DNA of 53,700 nucleotides from Pseudobdellovibrionaceae bacterium. Lineage in GTDB: Bacteria; Bdellovibrionota; Bdellovibrionia; Bdellovibrionales; Bdellovibrionaceae. This document shows positions 812 through 4,518 of the stretch, piece by piece (the stretch's first letter is position 1; each line of letters opens with the position of its first letter). The stretch is taken from the NCBI GenBank assembly GCA_039810425.1, contig JBDHWW010000022.1, forward strand, positions 1-53,700, given 5' to 3'. The notes beneath the pieces are model-generated. The model did no database searches, had not been told where the DNA came from, and saw nothing but the letters and a program-made list of their open reading frames with translations. The translations under genes and the position numbers were made by a program.

Positions 812-1381
812 CTATTTCAAAAGCATCCCAAGATTCAAAAGTCCCAGCCCCAAAACCGCAGTCCCCAAGAGATAACTAAAAACACGGTAAAAACGCAGGT
901 TTTTAGTGAGTCTTTGTGCTTCGGTTTCAAAATGCGCCTTCAGGACGCGAATTTCCACTTCAAGTGCTTCGCGATAACCTTTTTCCTCATGAATCTTTAA
1001 GAGAGCCTTTTCGTGCAAAATCTGCGGGTCTTTGCCGATGAAATATTGCGGTGTTAAGCCCGGGATTTTTTCCTGCAAAGTCATATACCACTGCAAAGCC
1101 CGCCAAATATGAGGGGGAGCTTCTTCCCCGTCGCGATTCCAACGCGTCCAAGCCGAGGGGTCGACCATCAAAAGTTGGCAGATTTTTCGCTGAGAAAGCC
1201 CCAAATTTGCGCGAATTTTCTCAAGGCTTCCAAGTTGTTTTTGAATGACCGAAATCTGAGCCTCATAAAACATGCGAGAGGAGGTTTTCGATCGAACCCC
1301 TTGATCTGCTCCTTCAAAACCATCCAAAAAAGCCGGAATATTTGCTGCGCGAGTGGGATTTATTTCGGTTCCCATTTCCAT
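812..1381 (-). CDS. XRE-like HTH protein with coiled coil and C-terminal transmembrane anchor
   Basis: LEKIRANLGLSQRKICQLLMVDPSAWTRW is HTH-like; hydrophobic tail VFSYLLGTAVLGLGLLNLGMLL; GGAGG RBS upstream. Confidence 0.8.
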   Translation of the reverse strand: MEMGTEINPTRAANIPAFLDGFEGADQGVRSKTSSRMFYEAQISVIQKQLGSLEKIRANLGLSQRKICQLLMVDPSAWTRWNRDGEEAPPHIWRALQWYMTLQEKIPGLTPQYFIGKDPQILHEKALLKIHEEKGYREALEVEIRVLKAHFETEAQRLTKNLRFYRVFSYLLGTAVLGLGLLNLGMLLK

Positions 1382-1397
1382 CGTATCCTCCTAATTG

Positions 1398-1686
1398 ACG
1401 CTTTGCATTTTTAAATGACCATGTTGTGTTATGCAACTTAATCATTGTGATATACACATAAACACATTGTGAAATACAATTAATAATGAAATGAGGTTTT
1501 TGAATGGTCAAGCTAAATACTTGATTTCCCCGAAAGATTTTAAAATGAATAGCTAGGCAAGGGTTTTTTCGAATTCAACTCAAGTTTTTGGTTATATTCT
1601 TTAGTACTAAATATCTGAAATAACTAGTATTTTTGCGTTTGAAGTAATCGTAATTTCATCCCTACGCAGTGCATTTTTAAAATGAC
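1398..1686. repeat. Imperfect ~22-bp direct repeat pair with quasi-palindromic core
   Basis: ACGCttTGCATTTTTAAATGAC (1398-1419) and ACGCagTGCATTTTTAAAATGAC (1664-1686). Confidence 0.7.
1514..1526 (-). promoter_or_regulatory. IHF-like binding site
   Basis: Reverse complement AATCAA-GTAT-TTA matches WATCAA-N4-TTR. Confidence 0.5.
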
Positions 1687-1741
1687 TCGATGCATTCATA
1701 AAAACCACACTCACTCGCGAGACAAATGCGATGCGTTATTG

Positions 1742-1768
1742 TTATCGGCATATTTAGGCTTTTCTTTA
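1742..1768 (-). promoter_or_regulatory. Sigma-28 (FliA) promoter pointing toward the HTH gene
   Basis: Minus strand TAAA-gaaaagcctaaatat(15)-GCCGATAA, exact consensus. Confidence 0.8.
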
Positions 1769-1844
1769 CAAAGGTCTGGGGCTTCTTAATCATCAAATAA
1801 CGACGTTTTTGTGGGCTTTTTCATCGATATTTTGAGGTTTCATT

Positions 1845-2381
1845 TTGGCTAGTTCCGCAGTTCGATACTCACTGAACAAAAACAAATATCTTTTGCCGCC
1901 TGAAGTCGAAAGACTCAAAAAAATCATCACGGATTTTCAGGATAAAGACCCACGGAATTGTCTGCTCATCGATCTTGGACTTCGGACCGGGACCCGCGCT
2001 CAGGAACTTTTGAACCTGACCATGGCTGATCTCAACACCTACGATGAAAGTGTTTTTATCCGGGGTTTGAAGAACTCCAATGACCGGGAAATTCCGCTTC
2101 ATTCCGACTTCTTTAAAAGGCTCCACAGATTCGCAAGTCAGCAGGATGGCAGACATGTCTTCGGTATCAGCTATCACCGCTTGTACCAGATCTGGGAGCT
2201 TTACAGACCCGTTCCGAAGAAGTTCCATTCTTTAAGGCATACTTTTGCGATTGAGCTCTATCAAAAGACCAAGGATCTGCGCTTAGTCCAGGTTGCCTTG
2301 GGGCACAGAAATATCACCAACACGATGATCTACGCGGATTACGTGTATTCGCAGCAAGAATTGCGAAAGTTAATTCTATGA
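1845..2381 (+). CDS. Tyrosine recombinase, catalytic domain only (FimB/FimE-like size)
   Basis: R in TGTRAQEL, K in GLKN, HSLRH, LGH and Y in TMIYA; 178 aa; TTG start after GAGG. Confidence 0.92.
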   Translation: MASSAVRYSLNKNKYLLPPEVERLKKIITDFQDKDPRNCLLIDLGLRTGTRAQELLNLTMADLNTYDESVFIRGLKNSNDREIPLHSDFFKRLHRFASQQDGRHVFGISYHRLYQIWELYRPVPKKFHSLRHTFAIELYQKTKDLRLVQVALGHRNITNTMIYADYVYSQQELRKLIL

Positions 2382-2575
2382 GGAAGATCTTCGCCGGAAT
2401 TATCACTCTAGCGGTTGCGGCTTTTGTCTCTTACAAAATGGGATACAAGTCGGGCGTATCGCAAATTGATGAAATGGCCACCGAGAATAAAGTAAAAAGC
2501 GAACTCGTCGAGCTGACCCGCCAAGTCTTTTCTTTAGTCAGACAAAAGGAAATGGACTCAGTAAAGACTTTATGA
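2378..2575 (+). CDS. Small membrane-anchored hypothetical protein
   Basis: 65 aa, N-terminal hydrophobic helix, ATGA overlap with the recombinase stop. Confidence 0.6.
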   Translation: MRKIFAGIITLAVAAFVSYKMGYKSGVSQIDEMATENKVKSELVELTRQVFSLVRQKEMDSVKTL

Positions 2576-2628
2576 AAATGACCGGCCAAGTTCGTTTAAA
2601 CCGTATGAATTAGAAAGGCTTGAGAACC

Positions 2629-4518
2629 ATGAGCTTGATTCCCCGCTCTATTTTATTTGGCAACCCCAACAAATTCAATGCGCAGCTTAGTCCTGACGGA
2701 AAATACATTTCCTTTATCGCGCCGAAAGAGGGTATCAACAATATTTGGGTCGCTTCTGTCGAAGATATCTCAAAAGCTGTCTGCGTTTCAGACGATAAAA
2801 AGCGCGGTATTGTTAACTATCATTGGACCTTCACTCCAGGACTTCTTATTTACAGCCAGGATCAGGGCGGCAACGAGAACTTTGCAGTTTACAAAGTTTC
2901 TGCAGAAAACGGTAAAGTTACAATGCTCGCTGGAGGTGAAAACTTCCGCGTGGACATTGCTCAATTGCATCACAAACAAGCCGAGCATGTCCTTTTATCT
3001 ATGAACGATCGTGATCCCCGCTTTATGGATTACCACAAAATTAACTTAATCACCGGTGAGCGCACTTTAGCTTATCAAAATGACAACGGATATGCGGGAA
3101 TCATTTTTGACTCTCAATTCAAGCCTCGCATTGCTTCTATTCAGTGTCCGGATGCTAGTGATGACCTTTTATTTTTTAATACGACCACGAATTCTTTTGA
3201 ACTTCAGTCCAAAGTTCCTTTTGAAGACACCCTAGCTACCGCCCTTTGGTTTTTTGGTAAGGATGATAGAACTCTTTTACTTTCTGATAGTCGCGGTCGC
3301 AATACGGCAGCTCTTAAAACAATGGACACCACAACTCGCGAAATTAAAATTATTGCGGAACATGCGAAATGCGATCCATCGGGTATTGAAATGCATCCTT
3401 ATACTCGTGAAATTTCGGCGGCAACGTTTACCTATGCAAAAAAAGAATGGGTCTTTCTCGATGAAGAGTTTCAAAAGCATGTCGAGTTTATCCAAAATCA
3501 GGAGAGTGGCGAACTTACTGTTTTTTCAAGAACTTTGGATGATAAAAAGTGGTTGGTGATTTTTTCTCCTGATAACGGTACACCGAAGTATTTTCTCTAT
3601 GAAACTAGTAAGAAAAAACTAAATTTTCTTTTTGAAACCCGCCCTGACTTAAAGGGGTTTAACCTTAGCCATGTAGAGCCTCGGGTCATCCGTGCACGCG
3701 ATGGAATGGAACTTGTTTCTTATTTGACTCAACCTTTAAATCCAATTGCTGGTCCTGGCAATCCAAACCCAATGGTTTTGGTGGTTCATGGTGGGCCCTG
3801 GGCTCGAGATCAATGGGGATTTAATTCTCGTATTCAGTGGGTGGTAAACCGAGGCTACACAGCCTTATCTGTAAACTTCCGTGGGTCCACGGGCTTAGGA
3901 AAGGCCGTTGCTAACGGAGGCAATAAAGAATGGGCAGGTAAAATGCATGACGATCTGATCGATGCCTGCCAATGGGCGATTGATGCTAAAATTGCAGATC
4001 CAAACAAGATCGCAATCTTTGGCGCGTCTTATGGTGGTTATGCCGCCTTGGTTGGTTTGACATTCACTCCGGATTTTTTCGCGTGCGCCGTGGATATTGT
4101 AGGGCCATCGAATATCAATACCCTTCTCAGTACGATTCCACCTTATTGGGAGCCAATGGTGGCTACTTTCAAAACCCGAGTGGGCGATTATACAACAGAA
4201 GAGGGAAAGAAGTTCCTCTTTGAACGTTCTCCGGTCAGTCGTGTAGATAAAATCAAAAAACCATTACTTATTTTGCAAGGTGCAAACGATCCGCGAGTGA
4301 AACAAGACGAGGCAGATCAAATCTATAAAGCTATGAAAGACAAAAATATTCCTGTGGAATACGTCCTGTTCCCGGACGAAGGGCACGGTTTCCAAGAGCC
4401 GCGCAACAATGTGGCCGCTACAGCCCTTATGGAAGAATTTTTATCGAATTATCTCGGCGGTCGTTTAGAGCCTATTACTGACGAAGTCAAAAACTCATCC
4501 GCACAAATTTTCAATTAA
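2629..4518 (+). CDS. S9 family peptidase (dipeptidyl aminopeptidase/acylaminoacyl peptidase)
   Basis: Beta-propeller N-terminus, HGGP, GASYGG nucleophile, NDPRV Asp, DEGHG His; ATG at 2629 preferred over TTG at 2620. Confidence 0.93.
   Translation: MSLIPRSILFGNPNKFNAQLSPDGKYISFIAPKEGINNIWVASVEDISKAVCVSDDKKRGIVNYHWTFTPGLLIYSQDQGGNENFAVYKVSAENGKVTMLAGGENFRVDIAQLHHKQAEHVLLSMNDRDPRFMDYHKINLITGERTLAYQNDNGYAGIIFDSQFKPRIASIQCPDASDDLLFFNTTTNSFELQSKVPFEDTLATALWFFGKDDRTLLLSDSRGRNTAALKTMDTTTREIKIIAEHAKCDPSGIEMHPYTREISAATFTYAKKEWVFLDEEFQKHVEFIQNQESGELTVFSRTLDDKKWLVIFSPDNGTPKYFLYETSKKKLNFLFETRPDLKGFNLSHVEPRVIRARDGMELVSYLTQPLNPIAGPGNPNPMVLVVHGGPWARDQWGFNSRIQWVVNRGYTALSVNFRGSTGLGKAVANGGNKEWAGKMHDDLIDACQWAIDAKIADPNKIAIFGASYGGYAALVGLTFTPDFFACAVDIVGPSNINTLLSTIPPYWEPMVATFKTRVGDYTTEEGKKFLFERSPVSRVDKIKKPLLILQGANDPRVKQDEADQIYKAMKDKNIPVEYVLFPDEGHGFQEPRNNVAATALMEEFLSNYLGGRLEPITDEVKNSSAQIFN

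Follow-up and report, generated by a model that had tools for sequence, protein, structure and literature searches.

A single-copy mini-recombinase, a predicted membrane-anchored partner and one precisely spaced site near dif in Bdellovibrionales

In the lambda-type attP intasome, IHF sites flank the recombination core and a triplet of phased boxes lies on one arm. XerS with difSL and XerH with difH each link one recombinase gene to one dyad site in the terminus, XerCD acts at cer and psi on a core of ~30 bp with ~180 bp of accessory DNA and helper proteins, and XerCD at dif normally waits for septal FtsK, according to PMC5357621. In Tn4651, the tyrosine recombinase TnpS and its divergent helper TnpT have their site, rst, between them (PMC7157771). 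Both TnpS/TnpT and cer/psi illustrate that tyrosine recombination can also be steered by accessory DNA together with helper proteins (PMC7157771, PMC5357621).

Here, we describe a locus near the start of a 53,700-nucleotide stretch of DNA from a Pseudobdellovibrionaceae bacterium (contig JBDHWW010000022.1; the whole stretch is called the window below). The locus, which we refer to as the module, is a hybrid of three of these systems, combining the gene-linked terminus site of XerS/XerH, the accessory DNA of cer/psi and the divergent helper of TnpS/TnpT, and it belongs to none of them. Like XerS/difSL and XerH/difH, it links one recombinase gene to one dyad site in the terminus, and XerH is the top structural match to the recombinase; unlike them, the enzyme is half the size (178 versus ~355 aa) and has no core-binding domain, the site comes with accessory boxes, IHF sites and a partner gene, and the module coexists with XerCD/dif rather than replacing it. 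The likeness to XerCD at cer/psi lies in a core with accessory elements, which here span 154 bp to its left; the differences are the chromosomal setting, the dedicated recombinase, the symmetric core and the helpers, which we infer to be IHF and the membrane-anchored helix-turn-helix (HTH) protein, not PepA and ArgR. TnpS/TnpT shares the arrangement of a tyrosine recombinase and a divergent helper with the site between, but the present locus is not in a Tn3-family transposon: it is a single-copy resident locus among housekeeping or variable genes, its recombinase lacks a core-binding domain, and its helper is set apart by description as an XRE HTH with a coiled coil and a transmembrane (TM) segment. 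As in lambda attP, IHF-like sites lie on both sides of the core and a phased triplet of boxes on one arm, whereas the recombinase has no arm-binding domain, there is no resident prophage and no partner att site was found. The module shares with FimB/FimE a short catalytic-domain recombinase and nearby IHF sites, but it has no inverted site pair and no invertible promoter, and its recombinase scores far below the family cut-offs.

The accessible text of a survey of recombinase subgroups (PMC8138268) does not mention Bdellovibrio, and that of a review of the Bdellovibrio chromosome names xerCD, dif and ftsK (PMC11318664). Our search, outside which subscription papers and bioRxiv supplements lay, found no paper naming Bd2025 or Bd2026, the HD100 orthologues of the two genes, in a Bdellovibrio context. 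Bdellovibrio-type predators mostly keep the recombinase, its predicted membrane-anchored DNA-binding partner and one precisely spaced site near dif, which together likely untangle copied chromosomes in the undivided filament.

The locus and its two proteins

The features of the locus are as follows, with positions counted in the window.

812-1381, minus strand: XRE-type HTH / coiled-coil / C-terminal TM protein, 189 aa; HD100 orthologue Bd2026
1424-1436, no strand: accessory box 1 (TTGYR-N3-YRCAA dyad), -154 from the core; 52/103 contexts
1445-1457, no strand: accessory box 2, -133 from the core; 44/103 contexts
1467-1479, no strand: accessory box 3, -111 from the core; 51/103 contexts
1514-1527, minus strand: IHF-consensus site, -64 from the core; 69/103 contexts at -64/-65
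1578-1605, no strand: putative recombination core, 11-bp arm / 6-bp spacer (1589-1594) / 11-bp arm; sole match in the genome
1608-1621, minus strand: second IHF-like site, abutting the right arm, +30; 85/103 contexts
1742-1768, minus strand: perfect sigma-28-type promoter, pointing across the core to the HTH gene; lineage-specific
1845-2381, plus strand: catalytic-domain-only tyrosine recombinase, 178 aa; HD100 orthologue Bd2025; recognition helix 110-120
2378-2575, plus strand: 65-aa ORF, 5' remnant of a 297-aa gene of the relative G005; not part of the module

The recombinase matches PF00589 (E 7.9e-24, residues 15-165), and R51, K76, H128, R131, H154 and Y163 are unchanged in all 65 aligned orthologues. 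Its structure model (pLDDT 93) is a bare catalytic domain, whose closest fold is XerH (TM 0.76 to the query, 0.41 to the target). The catalytic fold and the R-K-H-R-H-Y set place it in the tyrosine recombinase superfamily, and it falls well under the cut-offs of the XerC, XerD, XerS and Fim-type invertase models, with 52.4 bits on XerS (cut-off 267) and 52.6 and 38.1 bits on the invertase models (cut-offs 222 and 221). A preliminary description of this DNA had reported intact R-K-HxxR-H-Y residues without a core-binding domain and a divergent HTH/coiled-coil/TM gene, and both reports stand. For the HTH protein, the only Pfam matches are XRE-type HTH and coiled-coil entries (HTH_31 in 25 of 59 orthologues), the model has a long helix at 119-188, and a hydrophobic stretch >1.6 occurs in 66 of 72 orthologues. 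Three of the 72, together with one copy in G023, carry a long Lys/Arg-rich tail in place of the TM segment (L025, L098, L105, L119). G023 has two forms of the protein, the Lys/Arg-tailed one at the core and a TM form near dif; in this one case the displaced copy has no boxes and the core retains its own. Foldseek gave no significant match for the HTH protein, the matches listed being mostly coiled-coil, and its look-alikes are mainly phage XRE proteins, at scores <0.9 that make them a lead only.

The AT-rich spacer, earlier put at ~460 bp, is 464 bp long with 34% GC. Comparing the spacers of relatives revealed a 28-bp dyad of 11-6-11 build which, like the second IHF-like site, is absent from the preliminary description. 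Its weight matrix has exactly one match in the window's genome (G000). The core pattern occurs in 21 of 41 genomes, always at the module locus, in none of the seven module-less genomes and in no control. Of 191 loci with the gene, a count that includes short contigs and repeats of one genome, 170 have the core site, and its orientation is the same in 103 of 104 distinct loci. In six relatives additional genes, 2.7-5 kb of them, lie between the HTH gene and the recombinase; in G035, G038 and G025, where the ORFs are separated in this way, the core remains beside the HTH gene. In L020, L102 and L109 (3/104) the central spacer is reversed relative to its flanks, possibly a micro-inversion within the dyad. 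A reading of the dyad as a folded single strand or RNA was rejected, its mismatches showing no wobble-pair strand bias and Rfam giving 0 matches. Assembly contigs, the only material for this check and one in which rare forms could escape, have no joints or loose ends at the core.

Over 103 distinct contexts, the accessory elements, including the 13-bp dyads that we call boxes, stand at fixed, helically phased offsets, and most deviations are shifts of ~10-11 bp, about one helical turn. Among 5,000 shuffles of the spacer, 11 contain at least three boxes. The spacer has a core and accessory sites at fixed spacing in the manner of cer/psi. The repeat pair noticed before (1443-1461 and 1465-1483) corresponds to two of the three boxes. 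The site at 1514-1527, also seen before, matches the IHF consensus exactly from 1526 to 1514; this is weak evidence alone, since 1,354 of 20,000 shuffles equal it. Four IHF/HU-family genes are present in the window's genome. The perfect sigma-28 promoter reported earlier is indeed there, on the minus strand from 1768 to 1742 (7 of 20,000 shuffles), and a sigma-28 site occupies the equivalent place in 3 of 68 loci, all of one genus. A genome-wide search for a box array near ter did not find one, returning 11 scattered exact boxes and one cluster. On this pattern, the spacer would be a recombination site with accessory DNA, beyond a simple promoter, and the boxes may also serve as operators.

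The 65-aa ORF, previously described as a membrane protein coupled to the recombinase, turns out to be a truncated bystander matched in 2 of 110 loci, the window's own and that of G005, where it is the N-terminus of the 297-aa protein. DNA likeness to G005 ends at 2470, a peptidase gene follows, and the S9 prolyl oligopeptidase gene at 2620-4518 replaces the region after the recombinase relative to G005. At the other side, positions 1-77 are the end of a multi-copy element, with matches at the ends of 12 or more other contigs and in a 984-base record of ~40x genome depth; the element is probably an IS at which the assembly breaks off between dif and the module. Because this end lies ~0.7 kb from the HTH gene, the statement that no phage or transposon genes are nearby is not strictly true.

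Site recognition and the insertion in G007

A relative, G007, carries a 9.4-kb phage-like element (L148:4780-14180) between the HTH gene and the recombinase, at the core. It encodes packaging-ATPase-like, lytic and acetyltransferase proteins and a short integrase of its own, which is 46% identical to the window's recombinase and has the same recognition helix, YHRLHQ, as that of its host. A full core with the right IHF-like site faces the HTH gene; towards the recombinase there is half a core, and the sharing of sequence begins precisely at the 6-bp spacer. The event fixes the crossover register, and the incoming element leaves a complete site preserved. Two junctions were found in G007 only; no second half-site was found in the inserts of G035, G038 and G025. 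Another gene of the element encodes a 374-aa protein with no family or structure match, which could be the capsid protein of a tailless phage.

Short integrases of the wider family also occur in prophage-like or viral DNA (L154:6657-7301 in G019; L168:7995-8528), without the HTH-TM partner and without the core. Similar short recombinases form at least 150 clusters. The integrases of annotated phages were only ~30% identical, the core-like pattern had 42 matches in viral contigs, none with a related integrase, and PADLOC gave no matches.

The two arms of the core change together. Over 81 distinct cores, mean complementarity is 8.4/11 against 7.4 ± 0.1 in shuffled arm pairs, and 11 cores are perfect dyads where 1.7 are expected. 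Across 104 distinct recombinase-site pairs, the top residue-base associations fall on residues 111, 114 and 109, at the start of helix 110-120. For arm positions 3 and 4, residue 111 is the highest of the 178 columns, with mutual information of 0.72 (next column 0.36) and 0.57 (next 0.34), respectively. C stands at arm position 3 with 13 of 15 H111 proteins and with 3 of the 89 others, through at least 10 changes on the tree; the window itself combines H111 with C3 on the left arm. The association of residue 111 survives within-clade shuffles (p 0.001-0.014), those of residues 114 and 109 survive the loosest shuffle only and fail the tight ones, and an independent-pairs test of covariation was not significant, with only 1-4 supported pairs. 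Helix 110-120 aligns with helix alphaK of XerH, which enters the outer-arm major groove (PMC5241119).

The covariation of residue 111 with the arms makes it most likely that the mini-recombinase rather than XerC/XerD reads and binds both arms. Taken with the phage junction in G007, it also strongly suggests that the recombinase cuts the core at the edges of the 6-bp spacer. Since the recombinase's own helix tracks the core sequence, the HTH protein is more likely to sit on the accessory boxes than on the core, and we infer that it binds all three. The earlier proposal that the HTH protein supplies the DNA targeting is therefore at most half right: it may hold for the boxes. With its 178 aa and a target preference that follows a single residue in one helix, the recombinase offers a compact natural model of recombinase-DNA recognition.

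Distribution and position beside dif

Bdellovibrio and other Bdellovibrionales make up the named relatives; the counts refer to sampled genomes, and absence means not found in those searched. Of 41 relatives, 34 have a single clear recombinase orthologue (at least 53% identity) and 33 have the HTH gene, the odd case being G037, whose recombinase lies on a 3.1-kb contig. In the seven genomes that have no recombinase, the HTH gene and the core pattern are missing as well. A broad-profile search found the recombinase in 87 of 108 Bdellovibrionales genomes, with no match in the other 21; among 293 genomes outside the order it returned one strong match, from the same class, and one weak match to a longer integrase. 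Genus g3 of the same family had no module match in 14 genomes in that search; its members (e.g. G060, G164) keep dif, Xer genes and FtsK. By these sequence counts, the recombinase and the HTH protein are a single-copy core pair of the Bdellovibrionales. Synteny across relatives had been named as a check in the preliminary description, and the pair is conserved; its view of a resident, non-mobile module likewise holds, given the conservation, the single copy and the position beside dif.

From dnaA, the module is 48-52% of the chromosome away in eight of nine measurable genomes; in G192 the distance is ~43%, and dif itself is 14 kb away. Where dif and the module share a contig, dif is 2.7-113 kb off, on the HTH side, with the recombinase pointing away, in 50 of 50 cases by hand count; 25 of these genomes come from one genus, so the cases are not independent. 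In HD100, the XerCD dif predicted at 1,946,858 (PMC2731167) is 12 kb from Bd2025. The dif pattern occurs in 194 of 198 genomes of the order, with up to two mismatches allowed and some chance matches among them. The dif of G000 lies ~8-9 kb from the core, on contig C57, whose collinearity with G005 extends to the window start. Generic proteobacterial dif patterns missed the real dif, and their best match in G000 was on a 2.5-kb contig of 66% GC that is probably contamination. Reading the palindrome as the XerCD dif was rejected, dif being a separate site; so was recombination between the core and dif, which have a short AT-rich stretch in common, as their registers are 2 bp apart and their relative orientation varies between genomes. 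GC skew, suggested earlier as a test of terminus position, was weak on contig C22 and did not place the terminus.

Matches to the XerD model are present in all 41 genomes, two of them in 40, and XerC-like and XerD-like genes, dif and FtsK-gamma accompany the module. Each of five genomes tested has a single GyrA/ParC gene and therefore no Topo IV, the topoisomerases being gyrase and Topo VI (5/5); Topo IV is absent from the two g3 genomes tested. As described in PMC8445325, ter moves from the pole to mid-cell in B. bacteriovorus, its copies part before constriction, and ter segregation is uncoupled from constriction. B. exovorus is likewise described as dividing non-binarily.

Candidate functions

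Our preferred explanation, to which we give slightly less than an even chance, is that the module is a conserved, accessory-site-controlled and probably septum-independent device for unlinking or resolving sister termini. The recombinase would bind both arms of the single 28-bp palindrome, IHF would bend the DNA and the HTH protein would occupy the three phased boxes, so that a synapse built by IHF and the HTH protein would replace the missing core-binding domain and FtsK activation, and the TM helix would anchor the terminus to the membrane. As each chromosome has one site, its only regular partner would be the sister copy after replication; the two copies would recombine, and the newly replicated chromosomes would be unlinked or resolved before any septum. 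What is least certain is the biological job proposed here, the unlinking of sisters in the multi-chromosome filament as an early partner of XerCD/dif or a back-up to it. Ter separation before constriction, the lack of Topo IV, an XerCD system awaiting FtsK and the precedents of cer/psi and TnpS/TnpT favour accessory-controlled unlinking. Against it, the Xer genes, dif and FtsK-gamma could in principle already do the job; whole lineages do without the module; the boxes, directly upstream of the HTH gene, may be ordinary operators; and transposon insertions are not depleted. The last point comes from a 109J screen in a host-independent strain (PMC6561027 and supplement), where the module rows, assigned by gene order, have W 1.2-1.8 and 1.8-2.5, and the xer rows are likewise not strongly depleted (W 0.6-1.5 and 1.0-1.3). 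If the explanation is true, chromosomal resolution would be controlled by accessory DNA, not FtsK, beside XerCD/dif, and Bd2025, Bd2026 and a base-resolved site would bear on how sister termini separate before a septum in the filament of B. bacteriovorus, a model predator that is harmless and amenable to genetics. The preliminary description had offered as one option a resolution or anchoring system with an HTH partner, a comparison with XerS/XerH and a place at the terminus; conservation, single copy and the position beside dif speak for it. A more specific and rather doubtful idea is that a domesticated phage-like intasome became a second, FtsK-independent unlinking machine, a split recombinase whose catalytic core would read the site with one helix and whose arm-binding domain, the membrane-anchored HTH protein, would act in trans and couple sister separation to membrane positions along the undivided filament.

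The same TM segment, conserved in 66 of 72 HTH orthologues, could instead point to a tether or organizer, in which the HTH protein ties ter to the membrane and the recombinase is a site-specific swivel that nicks and closes without strand exchange between sisters. The strict polarity relative to dif (50/50), the relocation of ter from pole to mid-cell and the retained catalytic residues agree with this. Known anchors such as MatP and RacA are multi-site, whereas the genome has one box cluster; the 11-6-11 core served real strand exchange in G007, and some HTH orthologues lack the TM segment. We regard a tether as unlikely, and still less likely is a domesticated phage int-att-repressor cassette that has no role in segregation and instead offers, in the terminus region, a platform for integration that captures genes or traps phages. 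The related mini-integrases in prophage-like DNA (G007, G019) and a viral contig, the numerous clusters of short recombinases, the extra genes in six relatives and the phage XRE look-alikes fit such a platform, but it requires neither an order-wide fixed polarity beside dif nor a TM partner, and the double junction is confined to G007.

Two further readings are very improbable. One, proposed in the preliminary description, is a FimB/FimE-like inversion or excision switch tied to the FliA attack phase, an idea that drew on the similar size without a core-binding domain, the IHF sites and the perfect sigma-28 match in this genome. A single core leaves no partner site to invert against, its orientation is all but invariant, the sigma-28 site is not conserved and the invertase models score far too low. 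Expression in HD100 does not fit either: according to the supplement of PMC3627812, Bd2025, with RPKM 54 and 80, is expressed in both phases, Bd2026 (RPKM 42 and 156) belongs to the growth-phase-specific class, and neither is attack-phase induced. The switch proposal is largely refuted. The other, which we give equally little credence, is an enzyme resembling a telomere resolvase, by which the circular chromosome would be opened for a time at the core to give hairpin ends. The dyad is near-perfect and the commonest spacer (82/104) could fold back with a two-base loop, but all assemblies read straight through the core, an ordinary integration event used the site in G007, and the fold matches XerH, XerA and integrases, with no telomere resolvase among the matches listed.

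Two minor observations concern the window's genome. Contigs C139, C143 and C145 are small, with 66-74% GC, and carry integrases and a proteobacterial-type dif; they are probably assembly contamination. An archaeal-type topoisomerase VI B subunit and a single GyrA/ParC gene are present, the relevant G000 loci being C17:29954-31423 and C7:24904-26223.
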